Assembly: GCA_964561135.1 (NCBI GenBank)
Contig: CAZLOB010000022.1
Coordinates: 5,718-69,717 of the forward strand
Source of the DNA: an uncultured Elusimicrobia bacterium
GTDB lineage: Bacteria > Elusimicrobiota > Endomicrobiia > DTEH01
Length of the DNA: 64,000 nt
Direction of reading: 5' to 3'
How positions within the stretch are numbered: position 1 is the first letter of the stretch; each line of letters opens with the position of its first letter. Shown piece by piece: positions 3,079 to 14,140 of the stretch. Position numbers and translations under genes: made by a program. The notes beneath the pieces are model-generated. The model saw nothing but the letters and a program-made list of their open reading frames with translations. It was not told where the DNA came from and searched no databases.

Positions 3079-3219
3079 ATCAATCCTTTATGTATCTAAA
3101 TCGTATATTCAAAAAAAAATGACAAGCACGTTAAGCAATTTTTAAAACTATTGATTTTTAGAATATAAATTAGTAAATGATTAAAGTGTCAAATTTTAAA
3201 CTATATTTTGTAAACAATC

Positions 3220-4342
3220 ATGACAATAAATCAAGAATTAATTGAAAAATACAAAGATCTTGTTTCTGAAATAGGAAAGATTGGAGATTTTCTTTAACAT
3301 TGCTGAAAAAGAAAAACTTTTGGCTGAGATACAACAAAAACTTGCTAATACTCAACTGTGGCAAAACACTTCTTCACAACAATATCTTGAACTAACAAAA
3401 CAATTTCAAGAAGTTCAAAAGAGTTTAGAAGTATATAACAAAATAAAATATTTACAACAAGAGTTAGAAACAATATTAGAACTACATAAAGAAACAGATG
3501 AACATTCTTTGGCAACAGAGTTTAAAAATTATCTTGCAGAACTACAGCAAATTGTAAACCAACTTAAGTTAACAATTTTTCTTAACGAACCATATGATAA
3601 ATCTAACGCTATTGTAACGCTTCATGCAGGCGCTGGTGGAACTGAAGCTTGTGACTGGGTTGAGATGTTGTTTAGGATGTACACACGTTGGGCAGATAAA
3701 AAAGGGTTTAAAGTAGAACTTGTTGATATTTCAAAAGGTGAGGAAGCGGGTTTTCGTAGTGTTATGTTTATTGTTAAGGGAGATTATGCATATGGTTTAC
3801 TTAAAGGTGAGGAAGGTGTACATAGGTTAGTGCGAATATCACCCTTTGATGCAAACAAAAGACGACATACATCGTTTGCAAGTTGTGATGTTGCAGCAGA
3901 AGTTGCTGAAGAAGAAATAGTTATTGACGAAAATGATTTAAAGATAGAGACATTTCGTGCTTCAGGCCATGGTGGACAACATCTACAAAAAACTGAGTCT
4001 GCAGTAAGGATTACTCATATACCCACAGGGATTGTGGTACAATGTCAGACAGAACGGTCTCAGTTAAAAAATAAACTAACTGCTTTAAAAATTTTAAAAT
4101 CAAGATTGTACAAACTTAAAAAAGAACAAGAATTAAAAGAAAAGCAAAAAGAACGTATACAGAAAGGTGAGATTGGCTGGGGTAGGCAAAAACGTTCTTA
4201 CATTTTTATGCCGTATCAACTTGTAAAAGATCATATTACAGGAGTTGAAGTAGGAGATATTAATTCTGTAATGGACGGAGAAATAGATGTTTTTATTCAA
4301 GCATATCTTGAATATATTGCAAAAAAGAATAAAAAAATATGA
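3220..4342 (+). CDS. prfB: peptide chain release factor 2, made by a programmed +1 frameshift: join(3220..3294,3296..4342)
   Basis: ORF0 is 25 codons (MTINQELIEKYKDLVSEIGKIGDFL) and ends at TAA 3295-3297. The +1 frame continues NIAEKEKLL... The protein has the RF2 SPF motif (RISPFDA) and GGQ (SGHGGQ). The 25-codon ORF0 length matches E. coli prfB. Confidence 0.9.
3283..3298 (+). other. prfB +1 frameshift cassette: SD-like GGAGAT, TTT spacer, slippery CTT, in-frame TAA, then C
   Basis: Read directly as GGAGATTTTCTTTAAC. The architecture matches E. coli AGGGGGTATCTTTGAC except that the stop codon is TAA rather than TGA. Confidence 0.85.
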
Positions 4343-5409
4343 ATCAAATAGAGAATTTAAGGAAAAAAATAAACCGGATCGATCTAAAAATACTGAATTT
4401 ATTGAACCGTCGTGCTGAGATTGCAAAACAAATTGGCCAAATCAAATCTTCTAAAGGATACCAAATTTATTCTCCAGAACGAGAAAAAGAAATTATACAA
4501 AAAATGATAAAACATAATATGGGACCATTAGATGAGGAAGATGTGAAAGAAATTTTTTCTTTGATTATTCAAATCTGCAGGTATCAACAAAAAAAATTTA
4601 AAGTTTCATATTTAGGTCCTGAAGGAACTTTTACCCAACTTGCAGCAATAAAAATTTTTGGTAATAGAAACATTTATATACCTAAAGAAACAATAGGCGA
4701 TGTGTTTTACAGTGTTGAAAAAAACGAGGTTGAGTACGGTGTTGTTCCTGTAGAAAACACTACTGAAGGTATTGTTTCTCATACACTTGATATGTTTTTA
4801 GAATGTGATTTATACATCTGTGGCGAACTTGATATGAAAATTTCACATTGTTTGCTTTCAAAAGAAAACTCTATTAAAAAAATAAAGTATGTATATTCTA
4901 ACCCACAAGCTTTTGCTCAATGTAAAAACTTTGTTTCTACAAAGTTACATTATGCGAAACTAATTGAAGTGTCTTCTACTGCGGAAGCAGCAAAAATTGT
5001 TGCTAAAAAAAGGTATTCTGCAGCAATATCCTCAGAAGTAAGTGCCAAAATTTATAAATTAAACATTTTAGAAAGAAACATACAGGATTTAGAAGATAAC
5101 TACACAAAGTTTATTGTTATTGGTAAACACCCTATAATGAGACCATCTGGGAAAGATAAAACATCAATTTTGTTTTCTTTAAAAGACAGGGTTGGTATAC
5201 TGCATGACGCTTTAGCACCGTTTAAAAAACATGGGATTAACCTAACAAAGATAGAATCCAGACCGTCAAAACAACGTCCATGGGAATATGTTTTCTTTGT
5301 AGATTTTGTTGGCCATATAAACGATAAAAATGTTAAAAAAGCAATTGAAGAACTGGAAAATTTGTGTACAAATTATAAATTTTTAGGTTCGTATCCACAA
5401 GCGAAATAA
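4339..5409 (+). CDS. pheA: bifunctional chorismate mutase / prephenate dehydratase (P-protein)
   Basis: N-terminal chorismate mutase helix (LRKKINRIDLKILNLLNRRAEIAKQIG), a PDT domain (VSYLGPEGTFTQ) and a C-terminal ACT domain (GILHDALAPFKKHGINLTKIESRP). The start overlaps the prfB stop as ATGA. Confidence 0.9.
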   Translation: MNQIENLRKKINRIDLKILNLLNRRAEIAKQIGQIKSSKGYQIYSPEREKEIIQKMIKHNMGPLDEEDVKEIFSLIIQICRYQQKKFKVSYLGPEGTFTQLAAIKIFGNRNIYIPKETIGDVFYSVEKNEVEYGVVPVENTTEGIVSHTLDMFLECDLYICGELDMKISHCLLSKENSIKKIKYVYSNPQAFAQCKNFVSTKLHYAKLIEVSSTAEAAKIVAKKRYSAAISSEVSAKIYKLNILERNIQDLEDNYTKFIVIGKHPIMRPSGKDKTSILFSLKDRVGILHDALAPFKKHGINLTKIESRPSKQRPWEYVFFVDFVGHINDKNVKKAIEELENLCTNYKFLGSYPQAK

Positions 5410-5419
5410 GTTTAAAACA

Positions 5420-6541
5420 ATGAAAAAAAATATACCGCTACCACAACCTAGAAAAGAAATAAAAAATTTTCAACCATATATTCCTGGCAGACCTATTGAA
5501 GAAATTCAGGATAAATTTGGACTAAAAAATGTTTACAAACTTGCCTCAAACGAAAATCCGCTCGGTTGTTCAAAAACAGTAAAAAATCTTTTAGGCAAAT
5601 TGTACACTTTATTTCATAGGTATCCTGAAGGGTCAAGTTTAAAACTAAGAGAAAAAATTGCAAAAAAGTTTAATGTTTCAAAAGAAGAAGTGATAATAGG
5701 TGCTGGTACTGACGAACTTATCGAACTTCTTGGTAAAACATATCTTTCAAAAGAAGACAATATTGTTGTCTCAAACCATGCGTTTATAAGATATAAAATG
5801 GCAGGCGAGCTTATGGGTTGTAAAGTAATATCAGTACCAATGAAAGATTTTACTCATGATTTGTTCTCAATGGCAAAAAAAGTTAACAAAAAAACTAAAA
5901 TTGTTTTCATTGCTAATCCTAACAATCCAACTGGAACATATAATACAAAAGATGAAGTAAATTGGATGTTAAAATATTTTTTAGAAAAAAAACTTTATCC
6001 AATAGTTGTATTTGATGAAGCGTATTACGAATATGCAAAAGTTTTCAATGATTATCCGGACAGTTTGTCTTTGCGCAAATTATATCCAAATATTGTCATA
6101 CTTAGGACATTTTCAAAAGTATATGGTCTTGCAGGGTTAAGAATAGGGTTTGGTATTTCAAGAAAAGAAATTATTGCTGAATTAGACAGGGTTCGTCCCC
6201 CGTTTAATGTTTCTGTTGTAGCACAATATGTTGCAGAAAAGGCTATTGATGATGAAGAACATATAGAAAAATCCGTGTCTCATGTTATCCGTGAGAAAGA
6301 ATTTTTGTATACTCAATTAGATAAACTTAAAATTGATTATATAAAGTCAGCAACAAATTTTGTTTTAATCAATGTTTATCCAAAGAAAGGAATTGATGTG
6401 TTTTCAAAATTGCTTAGTAAAGGTATTATTGTACGCGCAATGGATGAGTACGATTTACCAAATCATATACGAGTAACTATTGGGACAAGGAAAGAAAATA
6501 TTAAGTTCATAAACAATTTCAAACAAATAATAAAAAACTAA
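5420..6541 (+). CDS. hisC: histidinol-phosphate / aromatic aminotransferase (class II PLP enzyme)
   Basis: LASNENPLG, NPNNPTG and the PLP-lysine motif RTFSKVYGLAGLRIG. It sits inside an aromatic amino acid gene block. Confidence 0.85.
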   Translation: MKKNIPLPQPRKEIKNFQPYIPGRPIEEIQDKFGLKNVYKLASNENPLGCSKTVKNLLGKLYTLFHRYPEGSSLKLREKIAKKFNVSKEEVIIGAGTDELIELLGKTYLSKEDNIVVSNHAFIRYKMAGELMGCKVISVPMKDFTHDLFSMAKKVNKKTKIVFIANPNNPTGTYNTKDEVNWMLKYFLEKKLYPIVVFDEAYYEYAKVFNDYPDSLSLRKLYPNIVILRTFSKVYGLAGLRIGFGISRKEIIAELDRVRPPFNVSVVAQYVAEKAIDDEEHIEKSVSHVIREKEFLYTQLDKLKIDYIKSATNFVLINVYPKKGIDVFSKLLSKGIIVRAMDEYDLPNHIRVTIGTRKENIKFINNFKQIIKN

Positions 6542-6891
6542 TGCAATATTTAGTTTTAGGTATAGTTGCGGGTATATTAGGTGGGTTGTTAGGTATAGGT
6601 GGTGGTACAATCATAGTTCCATATTTAGTTTATATTAAAAATTTTACTCAACATCAGGCACAAGGTGTAAGTTTAATACTTGCGGCTTTACCAATTGGTT
6701 TGCTTGCTTTATTGAAATATTACAAAGAAGGGAACTTTGATTTAAAGATAGGTTTTATAATAGCAATTGGTTTTTTTCTTGGTGGATATTTAGGTGCCAC
6801 AATAGCACATAAAATTCCTGAAAACCTACTTAGGAAATTATTTGGTATATATTTGCTACTTTTAGGTTTAAAAATGGTATTCGGCAAATGA
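6541..6891 (+). CDS. half-size TSUP (TauE/SafE-like) membrane protein, 116 aa with about 4 TM segments
   Basis: Gly-rich TM motifs typical of TSUP (GILGGLLGIGGGTIIVP and GFFLGGYLGA). It is only about half the usual family length. Confidence 0.65.
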   Translation: MQYLVLGIVAGILGGLLGIGGGTIIVPYLVYIKNFTQHQAQGVSLILAALPIGLLALLKYYKEGNFDLKIGFIIAIGFFLGGYLGATIAHKIPENLLRKLFGIYLLLLGLKMVFGK

Positions 6892-6906
6892 AAGGAGGGA
6901 AAACAA

Positions 6907-7923
6907 ATGATATTAGTTTTAAAAAATAATATCTCAGAAGAACAATTTAATCATATAATAGAAAAAATTAAAGAGTTAGGTTTTACACCACATATATCCA
7001 GGGGTGTAAAAAAGACAATTGTTGGTTTAATTGGAGAACAAGCTGAACGTTATAGAGAAATTTTTGAATCAATAGAAGGTATTGAACATATTTCTGAAAT
7101 TGAGAACCCGTTTAAGTTAGCAAGTAGAGAATTTAAAGAAGAAGATACAATAGTAAAAGTAAATCCTGAGGTTGAGCTTGGTGGTAAAAAAATTGTTGTT
7201 ATAGCTGGACCTTGTGCTGTTGAATCTAAAGAACAATTTTTAACTATTGCGAAAGAGGTTAAGAAACACGGTGCTGTTTTGTTACGAGGAGGTATTTTTA
7301 AACCACGTACTTCACCATATTCGTTTCAAGGGTTAGGTAAAGATGGACTAAAAATTTTAAAAGAAGTAAAAGAAGAAGTTGGGTTAGGTATTGTATCTGA
7401 AGCGATGAATATTGAACAAGTTGAAATTTTAGCTGAATATGTTGATATTATACAAATTGGTGCAAGAAATGTACAAAATTTTGAGTTACTTAAAGCTGCT
7501 GGAAGAATAAAAAAACCTGTATTATTAAAACGTGGTATGGCAACAACAATCAAAGAATGGCTAATGTCAGCAGAATATATTATGGCAGAAGGAAATTATA
7601 ACGTAATACTTTGTGAACGAGGTATACGTACGTTTGAAGATTCAACAAGGTTTACTTTAGACTTAAATGCGATACCTGTAGTAAAAAGTTTATCTCATCT
7701 ACCTGTAATTGTTGATCCAAGCCATGGTATAGGAATAAGAAATTTTGTACCAACAATGGCAAAGGCTGCTATTGTAGCAGGTGCCGACGGGTTAATCATA
7801 GAAGTACATCATAATCCTGAACAAGCACTTTCTGATGGCCCACAAAGTATCTATCCGTACCAGTTTGCACAACTTATGCAAGACCTTAGAAAACTTGTGG
7901 AAGCTATCGGAAGAAGTATATAG
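6907..7923 (+). CDS. aroF: 3-deoxy-7-phosphoheptulonate (DAHP) synthase, type I-beta with an N-terminal regulatory domain
   Basis: AGPCAVES, GARNVQNF and VDPSHG motifs. The length of 338 aa and the roughly 80-aa N-terminal extension resemble Thermotoga-type DAHPS. A GGAGGG RBS lies upstream. Confidence 0.9.
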   Translation: MILVLKNNISEEQFNHIIEKIKELGFTPHISRGVKKTIVGLIGEQAERYREIFESIEGIEHISEIENPFKLASREFKEEDTIVKVNPEVELGGKKIVVIAGPCAVESKEQFLTIAKEVKKHGAVLLRGGIFKPRTSPYSFQGLGKDGLKILKEVKEEVGLGIVSEAMNIEQVEILAEYVDIIQIGARNVQNFELLKAAGRIKKPVLLKRGMATTIKEWLMSAEYIMAEGNYNVILCERGIRTFEDSTRFTLDLNAIPVVKSLSHLPVIVDPSHGIGIRNFVPTMAKAAIVAGADGLIIEVHHNPEQALSDGPQSIYPYQFAQLMQDLRKLVEAIGRSI

Positions 7924-7929
7924 CTACTG

Positions 7930-8802
7930 ATGCAAATAAAACAGATAAGTATAATAGGTGTAGGTCTCATTGGTGGATCAATTGGTTTAGCATTAAAAAA
8001 ATGTTTATCTTCTGTAGTTATTATTGGTGTTGGGAGGAATGTTGACAAGTTAAAAATTGCAAAAGAAAAAGGATGTATTGACAAGTTTACAACTGATATT
8101 AAAGAAGGTGTAAAAGACGCAGATATTGTCATTATTAGTGTTCCTGTTAATTTAACTATAAAATTCGTAGAGTTAGTTTTACCATATGTGAAAGAAGATG
8201 CTGTAATAACAGATGTTGCGTCAGTGAAAAATGAAATAATAAAAAAAGTAAAACAAAAGATATTAAAGGTAAAGAAAACAAAAAAAGTACATTTTGTAGG
8301 TTGTCATCCATTAGCAGGACTTGAAAAATCAGGTGTTGAATATGCAAAAGAAAACCTGTTTGAAAATTCTGTCTGCGTTATATGTTATGACAAAACAATA
8401 TGTTCTAAAGATGCTTTAAATAAAATAAAATTTTTGTGGGAAACAATGAAAGCAAATGTCGTTGATCTTGATCCACACAAACATGATAAAATTCTCGCAT
8501 TAACAAGTCATATGTTACATATTATAGCATATGTTTTAGCAAAACAAATTAATTCAAAAAAGGAATATTTAAAATTTACTGCTGGTGCGTATAGAGATAT
8601 GACACGTATCGCTGCGTCAAACCCTGAAATGTGGGCTCAAATATGTTATATGAACAGAAGTTTTGTAAAAAACGAGTTAAAAAAATTTTTAAACTTAACA
8701 AAACAAGTTCTAAACTGTTTAGACAACTACAATAAATTAAAAAAATTTTTCAGTACAGCTTACAGACTTAAACTAAAAAGTTATGAACATAAAAGTATAT
8801 AA
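7930..8802 (+). CDS. tyrA: prephenate dehydrogenase
   Basis: Rossmann motif IIGVGLIGGS, plus GCHPLAG and the TSHMLH family pattern. Confidence 0.85.
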   Translation: MQIKQISIIGVGLIGGSIGLALKKCLSSVVIIGVGRNVDKLKIAKEKGCIDKFTTDIKEGVKDADIVIISVPVNLTIKFVELVLPYVKEDAVITDVASVKNEIIKKVKQKILKVKKTKKVHFVGCHPLAGLEKSGVEYAKENLFENSVCVICYDKTICSKDALNKIKFLWETMKANVVDLDPHKHDKILALTSHMLHIIAYVLAKQINSKKEYLKFTAGAYRDMTRIAASNPEMWAQICYMNRSFVKNELKKFLNLTKQVLNCLDNYNKLKKFFSTAYRLKLKSYEHKSI

Positions 8803-10075
8803 GAAAGACAAAATTAAAGCAGAAATAGAAGTTCCTCCAGACAAATCTATAACACATAGAGCTATAATGTTAGCATCTATATCTTCAGGTGTATCAGAGA
8901 TACACAATTTTTTAAAAAGTAAAGATTGTTATTCTACTATTAACGCTTTTAGGTCGCTTGGAGTAAAAATTGTTGAAGAAAAAAATACATTAAAAGTTTA
9001 CGGTGTTGGTATGGAAGGATTAAAACAACCAAACGATGTTATTGACGCTGGTAACTCTGGCACTACAGTAAGGTTAATATCAGGCATTCTTGCTGGAAAC
9101 GAGATAGAAGTAAAAATTGTTGGTGATGAAAGTTTGTCAAAACGTCCAATGAAACGTATTGTAGAACCGTTATCTCTTATGGGTGCAAAAATTGTTGCTA
9201 CTGAAGGTAACTATTTGCCTATGACTATATATGGAAGCAAAAACTTAAAATCTATCACTTGGGAAAGTAAAATTGCGTCAGCACAAGTAAAATCTTGTAT
9301 TCTATTTGCAGGAATGTATGCAGAAGGTGAAACAATTTATATCGAACCACAAATATCAAGAGATCATACAGAACGTATGTTACAATACTTGGATGTAAAC
9401 ATTGAGAAAAAAGATAGGGTGTGCTCAATTAAGGGTAAAATAAAAAGAATAAAAAATTTTGAAATTGAAATACCAGGAGATCCATCTTCTGCAAGCTATT
9501 TTGTAGCAATTGGTATCTTAACAAAAGATTCTGAGATAGTTATAAGAAATGTTTGTGTAAATCCTACTCGTATGGGATTTATAAACACTTTAATAAAAAT
9601 GGGCGCAAATATAAGTTTGACAAACTTAAAAACAAAATATAATGAACCTGTTGCTGATCTTGTTGTAAAAAGTAGTAAACTAAAAGGTATAAACATATCT
9701 GCTGACGATGTACCATCAATGATTGATGAACTACCGCTGCTTGCTGTTATTGCGACACAGGCTGATGGTTTAACAGAAATACGTGGTGCACAAGAATTAA
9801 GAGTAAAAGAATCTGACAGAATCAAAACTATTACAACTGAACTACAAAAATTAGGTGCAAAAATTGTTGAACTTGAAGATGGTATGATTGTAATGGGTAA
9901 TACAAAACTTTCTTCTGAAAAAGATATTATTGAATTAGAATCTTATAAAGACCATAGGATTGCTTTAAGTTTAGCTGTAGCTGGAACTATTTGTGAAAGA
10001 AATGTAGTTATAAAAGATGCTGAGTGTGTTGATATATCTTTTCCAAACTTTTGGGAAATTTTTAATAGTTTATAA
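8783..10075 (+). CDS. aroA: 3-phosphoshikimate 1-carboxyvinyltransferase (EPSP synthase), class II-like
   Basis: PPDKSITHRA, GNSGTTVRL, KESDRI and DHRIA motifs over the full length. Confidence 0.95.
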   Translation: MNIKVYKKDKIKAEIEVPPDKSITHRAIMLASISSGVSEIHNFLKSKDCYSTINAFRSLGVKIVEEKNTLKVYGVGMEGLKQPNDVIDAGNSGTTVRLISGILAGNEIEVKIVGDESLSKRPMKRIVEPLSLMGAKIVATEGNYLPMTIYGSKNLKSITWESKIASAQVKSCILFAGMYAEGETIYIEPQISRDHTERMLQYLDVNIEKKDRVCSIKGKIKRIKNFEIEIPGDPSSASYFVAIGILTKDSEIVIRNVCVNPTRMGFINTLIKMGANISLTNLKTKYNEPVADLVVKSSKLKGINISADDVPSMIDELPLLAVIATQADGLTEIRGAQELRVKESDRIKTITTELQKLGAKIVELEDGMIVMGNTKLSSEKDIIELESYKDHRIALSLAVAGTICERNVVIKDAECVDISFPNFWEIFNSL

Positions 10076-11888: not shown

Positions 11889-12203
11889 ATGAAAAAAGGT
11901 ATTCATCCACAATATGTAGAATGTACGGTAACATGTGCCTGTGGATACACTTTCAAAACAAGGTCTACAAAACCTGAGATAAAACTTGAGATATGTGGCA
12001 ATTGTCATCCATATTTTACTGGGAAACAAAAATATGTTGACACTGCTGGTAGAATTGAGAAGTTTATGAAAAAATATGGTGAAAAATTTGATATCACTCA
12101 AAGGAAAAAGAAAACAAAGAAAGAGAAAAAAATAGTTGAGAAAATAAAATCTACTACTGAAAAAATTTTAACAACAAAACCTACTAAGAAAAAGAAAAAA
12201 TAA
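11889..12203 (+). CDS. rpmE: 50S ribosomal protein L31 (Zn-binding type) with a Lys-rich C-terminal extension
   Basis: [12 protein letters not shown]...[13 protein letters not shown] and the L31 core. A strong RBS AGGAGGGAG lies upstream. A tail of about 35 aa, rich in K/T/E, follows the core. Confidence 0.9.
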
Positions 12204-12206
12204 ACT

Positions 12207-13298
12207 ATGTTAGACAAAGAAATAATCAAAAATTGTGAACACTTAATTATAGAAAAAAAAGAGTTAGAACAAAAACTTGCTGATCCTAATATTATTAACA
12301 ACCAACAAGAATATCAAAATATTGTTGCTGAATACAACCGTGTCAACGAAATTGTTTCTGTATACTTACAAATTAAAGATTTGGAAAACAAAGTTGACGA
12401 ACTTAAAAAAGAATTAAAAAGTTCTACTGATACAGAATATAGTATGTTAGTAGAAGAAGAGATTGAAAAGTTGAGTAAAGAAACTGCTGAGTTAGAACAA
12501 AAATTGCTAGACCTTTTTCTACCCGAAGATCCTAACGAGAAAAAGAATGTGATACTTGAGATACGTGCAGGTACAGGCGGTGAAGAAGCAGCGTTGTTTG
12601 CATACGATTTGTTTAGGATGTACAGCAAATATTGTGCTAAAAAAGGCTGGAAAATAGAAGTTTTAGATATCAACCAGACGGAACTTAAAGGAATAAAGGA
12701 AGTTATATGTTATATTTCTGGTAAAGATGTATACAAATATTTACAGTTTGAAAGTGGAGTACATAGGGTTCAACGTGTACCTATAACAGAATCTTCCGGT
12801 AGAATCCACACTTCAGCTGCAACTGTTGCTGTTTTACCAGAAGCAGAAGATGTTGAGATAGAAATAAAACCTGACGATATTGAGATAGAAACATTTCGTG
12901 CTTCAGGTCATGGAGGACAACACTTACAAAAAACTGAATCTGCAGTAAGGATACGGCATAAACCAACAGGTATTGTTGTTCAATGTCAAGACGAACGTTC
13001 ACAATTAAAGAACCGTGAACGCGCATTAAAAATTTTAAAAGCAAGATTGTACGACTTAAAACTACAACAGCAACAACAAGAAATTGCTAAGTTAAGAAAA
13101 TCACAGGTAAAATCTGGAGACAGGTCTGAAAAAATACGGACATACAATTTTCCACAAAACCGTGTAACTGATCATAGAATAAATTTAACTTTATATAATT
13201 TACAAGAAGTTCTAGATGGTGAGTTAGACGAGATTATTGACAATTTAATCAAAGTTAGGCTGAAAGAAAAAATTGCTGAGTTTCTTTATAACAAATGA
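12207..13298 (+). CDS. prfA: peptide chain release factor 1
   Basis: PxT-type anticodon motif (RVPITES), GGQ (SGHGGQ) and the conserved rpmE-prfA-prmC context. Confidence 0.95.
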
Positions 13299-14140
13299 AC
13301 ACGATAAACGAAATTTATATTGATATATACAACAAACTGAAAAACTTTACTTCAGCACGTATTGAAACAGAACTGATTATATCAAAAACTTTAAATTTAG
13401 ATAAAATAAAAATTTATGTTTATCCTGAAAAAAAACTTAACGAAAAAGAACTTAAGTTGATTTATAAAAATCTTAACTTGAGGCTAAATCGTATACCACT
13501 TGAATATATATTTTGTGAAAAAGAATTTTTTGGTTTTAATTTTTATGTTGACAAAAACGTTTTGATACCACGGCAAGAAACAGAGTTTTTAGTAGAGGAA
13601 GCAATTAAGTTAATATCTTGTTACAAACTTAAAAAAATAGCTGACATTGGTACTGGTTGTGGTAATATCGCGATAAGTATCATTAAAAACATACAAACAA
13701 AAATCAAAATATATGCTACAGATATTTCAAAAGAAGCGATAAATGTCGCAAAAAAGAATGCAACGATGCATAATGTTTTAAACAAAATAGAGTTTGTTTT
13801 AACTGATAAACTAAAATATTTTTTAGATAATTCTATTATATTAGACATGATTGTTTCAAACCCGCCATATGTTACTGAAGAAGAGTATAAAAATCTTCAG
13901 CCAGAGATATATTATGAACCAAAAATTGCGTTAGTTTCGCCGACAGGGTTAGAATTTTATTCATATTTTGCCAAACATAGTAAAAAAGTTTTAAAAGAAA
14001 ATGGATTTTTAGTACTTGAATTGAACCCGAATTTATACAAAGAAATTTGCAACATATTTAAAGAAAATAAATTTTGTATTTATAAAACTATTTATGATTA
14101 CCAAAATCTACCACGTGTTATTGTAGTAAAAAACAATTAG
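13295..14140 (+). CDS. prmC: release factor glutamine N5-methyltransferase
   Basis: SAM-binding motif DIGTGCGNI and NPPY motif (VSNPPYV). The start overlaps the prfA stop. Confidence 0.9.

Follow-up and report, generated by a model that had tools for sequence, protein, structure and literature searches.

In the textbook view of RF2 autoregulation, the design turns on UGA being specific to RF2; UAA is read by both RF1 and RF2. In E. coli, the prfB cassette reportedly reads AGGGGG TAT CTT TGA C, a description ascribed to Craigen and Caskey (1986) and Baranov et al. (2002).

Reviews present the prfB cassette as remarkably conserved, with UGA-C at the shift site (PMC5009743). In the prfB survey of Prince, Lin and Feaga (mBio 2025; PMC12421855; preprint 10.1101/2024.09.24.614795), which comprised 8,164 motif-bearing genomes, CTTTGA accounted for 98.6% and CTTTAA for 1.4%, and TAG for none. 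The authors of the survey describe TAA as 'poorly tolerated' and 'not broadly fixed in clades', and they consider that CTTTAA probably keeps the RF2 feedback, since RF2 reads UAA in most bacteria (PMC12421855). The E. coli RF2 shift cassette also works with other stop signals, and the factor cognate to the stop then governs termination there (PMC2680264).

Here, we describe the prfB gene of an uncultured bacterium of the phylum Elusimicrobiota, class Endomicrobiia, carried by a stretch of 64,000 nucleotides that was analysed as a whole and is called the window below. The in-frame stop of this prfB is TAA and not the RF2-specific UGA, a stop that RF2 is still able to read. The gene is a new example of a rare, already catalogued variant, and its mechanism is most likely ordinary. 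The earlier note on this DNA had given UGA as almost universal, and the 98.6% of the mBio 2025 survey bears this out. It had also implied that a TAA-type cassette was novel, which does not hold, as such cassettes were already published; they are catalogued but not common (CTTTAA, 1.4% of 8,164; PMC12421855).

Like the canonical E. coli cassette, that of the window has a 25-codon ORF0, a Shine-Dalgarno (SD)-like element 3 nt before CUU, a CUU_U slippery site, a stop in the A site, a C at +4 and the remaining RF2 in the +1 frame. It differs from the E. coli cassette in its stop (UAA, read by RF1 and RF2, versus the RF2-specific UGA), in residue 26 (Asn, AAC, versus Asp, GAC) and in its shorter SD core (GGAG). 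With the CTTTAA cassettes of the mBio 2025 survey it has in common the same motif in an otherwise complete cassette, kept among contigs of the same species (L081-L083 and L085). Unlike what the summary of that survey conveys, TAA occurs in two of the four sister Endomicrobiia lineages of the window clade, a local enrichment not described there, and this is the only new point. The main text and the searchable supplementary text of PMC12421855 mention neither Elusimicrobiota nor Endomicrobiia. The locus adds a verified TAA instance, seen in several independent assemblies, from a phylum not named in that work.

Two other systems offer a comparison. In engineered RF2 shift cassettes with swapped stops (Curran and Yarus; the assay of Poole, Brown and Tate 1995; PMC2680264), termination likewise competes with a +1 shift at a CUU-stop; these cassettes were built as reporters for E. 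coli, whereas the window carries a natural, selected prfB allele. An identical CUU UAA C has been proposed as the +1 shift site of the Megavirus class-I release factor gene (PMC3521657). Unlike the RF2 of the window, the Megavirus factor is of the eukaryote type, belongs to a giant virus, has no SD stimulator and works in a different host translation system (PMC3521657).

The prfB cassette and its product

The anatomy of the cassette is as the earlier note gave it: all the coordinates match (Table 1), and the +1 frame encodes a full RF2. The peptide encoded by ORF0, MTINQELIEKYKDLVSEIGKIGDFL (25 sense codons from the ATG at 3220), is kept in relatives despite nucleotide divergence.

Table 1. 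Coordinates in the window of the prfB shift cassette and of the genes for RF1 and the release-factor methyltransferase.
Feature	Position	Strand	Details
prfB ORF0	3220..3297	+	ATG 3220-3222, 25 sense codons (RF2 N-terminus), in-frame TAA
Internal Shine-Dalgarno-like GGAGAT, core GGAG	3283..3288	+	CTT 3 nt downstream, stop 6 nt downstream
Spacer TTT between GGAGAT and CTT	3289-3291	+	
prfB shift site CTT TAA C	3292..3298	+	Slippery CUU_U, UAA stop, +4 C
Parts of the shift site	CTT 3292-3294, TAA 3295-3297, C 3298	+	CUU immediately 5' of the stop, followed by T 3295; +4 C is a weak termination context
prfB ORF1 (+1 frame)	3296..4342	+	AAC (Asn26) onward, 348 codons, TGA 4340-4342; RF2 main body with SPF and GGQ
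prfA (RF1)	12207..13298	+	TIGR00019, 509.8 bits (cutoff 423)
prmC, release-factor glutamine methyltransferase	13295..14140	+	TIGR03534, 229.1 bits (cutoff 199)

In a tblastn of RF2, frame 0 accounts for residues 1-25 and the +1 frame for residues 24-365. The joined product of ORF0 and ORF1 (373 residues) scores 464.8 bits on the NCBIfam prfB model TIGR00020 (cutoff 370), versus only 273-276 bits on RF1 models, and it has the RF2-specific SPF tripeptide together with GGQ. At the equivalent of E. coli position 246 it carries an alanine (FRASGHGGQ), as in an RF2 of the normal, fully active type and unlike the weak variant with Thr at 246 that is found in E. coli K-12 (PMC5373646). The dN/dS of RF2 ranges from 0.09 to 0.16 (dS 0.5-1.1), with 0.09-0.12 for ORF1 of the window against the sister lineages, values that point to strong purifying selection (dN/dS about 0.1) and by which a pseudogenised prfB was rejected. 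The SGHGGQ sequence in place of SGAGGQ was also considered as a special trait of the TAA lineages; it was discarded, being common in relatives.

Given its homology and its integrity, this gene is very probably a functional prfB of an uncultured member of the Endomicrobiia, expressed via a canonical programmed +1 frameshift. In such a mechanism, the ribosome would read the 25 codons of ORF0 and would then pause while peptidyl-tRNA-Leu sits on CUU and the A site holds a poor stop signal. The anti-SD of the 16S rRNA would pair with the internal GGAG lying 3 nt upstream, the tRNA would re-pair on UUU, and decoding would resume at AAC (Asn) in the +1 frame, yielding full-length RF2.

The heptamer CTTTAAC is found in 11 copies on the + strand of the AT-rich (29% GC) window. 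What is non-random in the prfB copy is its place at codon 25/26 together with the change of frame, and not the heptamer itself. Within the 64-kb window there is no 16S rRNA gene and no tRNA-Leu gene, and the pairing of GGAGAT with the organism's own 16S rRNA is thus predicted only. Since the core of the SD-like element comprises only 4 nt (GGAG) and SD-like cores stand before the starts of only 15 of the 62 window genes, the strength of the predicted SD:anti-SD stimulus is uncertain. Around the prfB site, we detected neither a stimulatory RNA structure above shuffled controls (fold z-score -0.57) nor a promoter or terminator signal above shuffles, promoter-like matches being no commoner than in shuffled sequence.

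The count of SD-like cores refers to GGAG, GAGG or AGGA at -20 to -4 of the long ORFs (15/62, versus 4/62 at a control position inside the ORFs). In the window, most starts, including those of prfB (leader 3190-3219) and prfA, have A/T-rich leaders without an SD, and a few genes have very strong ones. As most starts do without an SD, the internal GGAG would belong to a rather small set of SD-like elements that are used.

A practical matter for annotation is that public gene calls shorten the prfB of the window to the +1 ORF running from TTG 3281 to 4342 (P0001, 353 aa, beginning LEIFFN...), and those of relatives are called shorter still (P0003, 328 aa; P0004, 303 aa); frameshifted prfB genes are therefore systematically mis-annotated in metagenome protein catalogues.

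Authenticity and direction of change of the TAA

The TAA at 3295-3297 differs by a single base from the canonical site and lies in a low-GC, metagenome-derived sequence, features that would suit a sequencing, assembly or strain-level artefact in which the true base gives TGA. The gene-caller product P0001 is on record for JGI contigs. Three of these, L081, L082 and L083, come from three different metagenomes, have the same TAA and each read GGAGAT TTT CTT TAA C. Their nucleotide identity to the window is 99.83-99.96%, with one substitution each and, in L081, one gap in addition. The ENA metagenome contig L085 has exactly the same cassette with TAA. From these matches, four independently assembled contigs appear to represent the organism of the window, the identity figures being those of three of them (L081-L083). 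Moreover, a second lineage, ~84% identical to the window, has TAA as well, in two metagenomes. With TAA in four independent assemblies and again in a second lineage, we regard it as genuine and not as a read or assembly error; on this evidence, the artefact is already effectively refuted, and we give it almost no credence.

The record name of L083 (GBSSSed77CDRAFT_c006858, JGI 3300000082) suggests, by the name only, a 77 C hot-spring sediment; for a member of the Endomicrobiia with 29% GC, such a habitat would be unusual.

The nearest genomes to the window are MAGs of Elusimicrobiota Endomicrobiia, with an RF2 identity of 85% for L001 and 68-73% for L002-L006. The relatives were then surveyed for TAA versus TGA, using metagenome loci and GTDB species-representative loci, 80 of each, from which 154 prfB shift sites were taken. 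The stop is TGA throughout, except in three lineages with TAA: the organism of the window, a second lineage formed by L084/L165 (JGI 3300044273) and L089 (Ga0080004), and the distant Elusimicrobiota MAG L017, in which the cassette is AGGGGG TTT CTT TAA C. Outside the window's own clade, TAA is found in one of about 145 sites. The frequency of TAA in the 154-site survey agrees with the published 1.4%.

The L017 site (423-439 of JBNJFW010000131.1, MAG Y22_60dBSe2.bin.2) is a further, independent instance: its prfB cassette combines CTT TAA C with a strong AGGGGG SD, and the RF2 identity is ~50%. A 'TAA G' in L018 was rejected as an internal chance match, the real site of L018 being CTT TGA A.

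Four lineages, here called A to D and about equally distant from one another, form a group with 100% support that includes the window. Lineage A (the window) and lineage B (L084/L089/L165) have TAA, and lineage C (L001/L088) and lineage D (L086/L087/L166/L167) have TGA. As CTT TGA is the form in C, in D and in every outgroup, TAA is derived from TGA by one G-to-A transition. The same base is also the first position of the first codon in the +1 frame, so that A and B have Asn (AAC) at residue 26 in place of Asp (GAC).

The rest of the cassette is kept. All three TAA lineages retain the GGAG core (AGGGGG in L017), the 3-nt spacer, CTT and the +4 C; the same GGAG spacing is found in C and D, and GGAGA[N] stands at equal spacing in all closer Endomicrobiia-type relatives (L001-L006, L084-L093). 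As for a compensating change in the TAA lineages, the +4 C is present in 3/3, but also in 68% of the TGA sites, and with n=3 this is not significant. TAA and TGA alleles thus coexist among four close lineages with otherwise identical cassettes, which would make them convenient natural material for a comparison of stop identity.

Release factors and the shift-site UAA

A natural UAA version of the cassette asks whether the RF2 circuit tolerates cross-talk from RF1, a question already present in the literature (mBio 2025). The premise of the earlier note, namely that RF1 is available to read UAA, is borne out by the finding of prfA and prmC in the same window; the RF1 encoded there is 43% identical to the RF2. 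As prfA is present, the UAA at the shift site is readable by both RF1 and RF2. That RF1 might be missing, leaving UAA in effect to RF2 alone, was rejected on the same grounds, prfA being found in the second TAA lineage too.

The stops of 65 non-overlapping long ORFs of the window are TAA in 41, TGA in 18 (28%) and TAG in 6 (9%), and both prfB and prfA end in TGA-A. With TGA closing 28% of the ORFs, RF2 is indispensable. An alternative genetic code, or the loss of TGA as a stop, was likewise rejected, given that TGA ends 18/65 long ORFs, prfB and prfA included, and that RF2 is intact. TGA stops (28%) exceed TAG stops (9%), and RF2 is therefore likely the major release factor in this organism, stop-codon usage being only a proxy.

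At the shift site, termination at UAA would compete with the +1 shift; as RF2 reads UAA, the negative feedback of RF2 would be kept, and termination by RF1 would add an RF2-independent term that dilutes this feedback. If RF1 terminated at this UAA as effectively as RF2, the circuit would become a sensor of total RF1+RF2 capacity, which is how the earlier note read it. RF1 is established as a reader of UAA, and A and B each carry an intact prfA. Moreover, the E. coli shift cassette with TAG reports RF1 activity, termination being reduced ~10-fold in prfA mutants (PMC2680264). Three observations go the other way: TGA stops are three times as frequent as TAG stops here, which suggests that RF2 is the more abundant factor; the mBio 2025 survey cites evidence that in most bacteria, E. 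coli K-12 excepted, UAA is read mainly by RF2 (PMC12421855); and the RF2 of the window has the canonical Ala (FRASGHGGQ) and not the weak Thr of K-12. We thus consider a sensor of total capacity possible but doubtful, and the circuit is probably still mainly one of RF2 autoregulation.

The neighbourhood of these genes was also recorded. The genes rpmE (L31), prfA and prmC are closely packed at 11889-14140, ~9 kb downstream of prfB, and both class-I release factor genes and the methyltransferase gene lie within 11 kb, an arrangement also seen in L165 of the second TAA lineage. The rpmE gene (11889-12203), annotated from its position and from Pfam PF01197 on the L165 orthologue, is preceded by a strong SD, AGGAGGGAG. 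The TGA of prfB overlaps the ATG of pheA (ATGA at 4339-4342), the first gene of an aromatic amino-acid row (4339-10075) that comprises chorismate mutase/prephenate dehydratase, aminotransferase, DAHP synthase, prephenate dehydrogenase and EPSP synthase. The linkage of prfB to pheA is kept in all Endomicrobiia relatives whose downstream genes were examined. The upstream neighbours of prfB vary, with a Cas Csx3 gene in L165 and a Y1 transposase gene in L166. Farther along the window, gene orientation switches from + to - at ~50.6-50.9 kb, and the GC skew changes sign at ~52 kb (4-kb resolution), where the cumulative skew peaks; this pattern at 50.6-52 kb would fit replication forks that converge in a terminus region, or simply a skew coupled to the gene strand.

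One or two origins of TAA in the clade

The relationships among the four lineages were considered with regard to the number of origins of the TAA. In neighbour-joining (NJ) trees, C and D are grouped with a bootstrap of 90% (RF2+PheA), and the grouping of A and B, both with TAA, receives 22% with RF2 alone, 73% with PheA alone and 57% with the two concatenated. Across six syntenic genes (those for RF2, PheA, aminotransferase, DAHP synthase, prephenate dehydrogenase and EPSP synthase), the counts of quartet-informative sites are flat, with 22 for AB, 29 for AD and 26 for BD. The dS value peaks at 1.13 between the TAA lineages A and B and is lowest, at 0.51, between C and D. On these data, TAA would either have persisted through a deep divergence, with or without reversion in C and D, or have arisen twice. 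The probability of two independent gains in four lineages is ~1e-3, if each occurs independently at the 1.4% background. Either way, TAA is locally enriched in the clade, being found in 2/4 sister species-level lineages.

Could the TAA mark a decaying gene, or one that has lost its autoregulation? TAA-C would then act as an efficient stop, RF2 would be low and constitutive, and the allele would be slightly deleterious and transient. The scattered distribution of TAA, taken in the survey as 'poorly tolerated' (PMC12421855), would fit such a fate, and TGA in two sister lineages is compatible with reversion. However, ORF0 and ORF1 are intact and under the strong purifying selection noted above, the SD, spacer, CTT and +4 C are kept in every TAA lineage, and an RF2 on which 28% of the ORFs depend for their TGA stop is indispensable. 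In addition, the TAA lineages are separated by a dS of ~1.1, which implies long persistence or two origins, and neither looks fleeting. Decay or lost autoregulation is thus improbable.

We rather put forward, tentatively but as a serious possibility, that the TAA-type cassette may be stably tolerated in this small clade of Endomicrobiia and may not be a fleeting accident there. If so, something in the clade would make UAA acceptable as the sensor codon, the candidates being a dominance of RF2 at UAA, a low RF1 activity and a weak termination at UAA-C.
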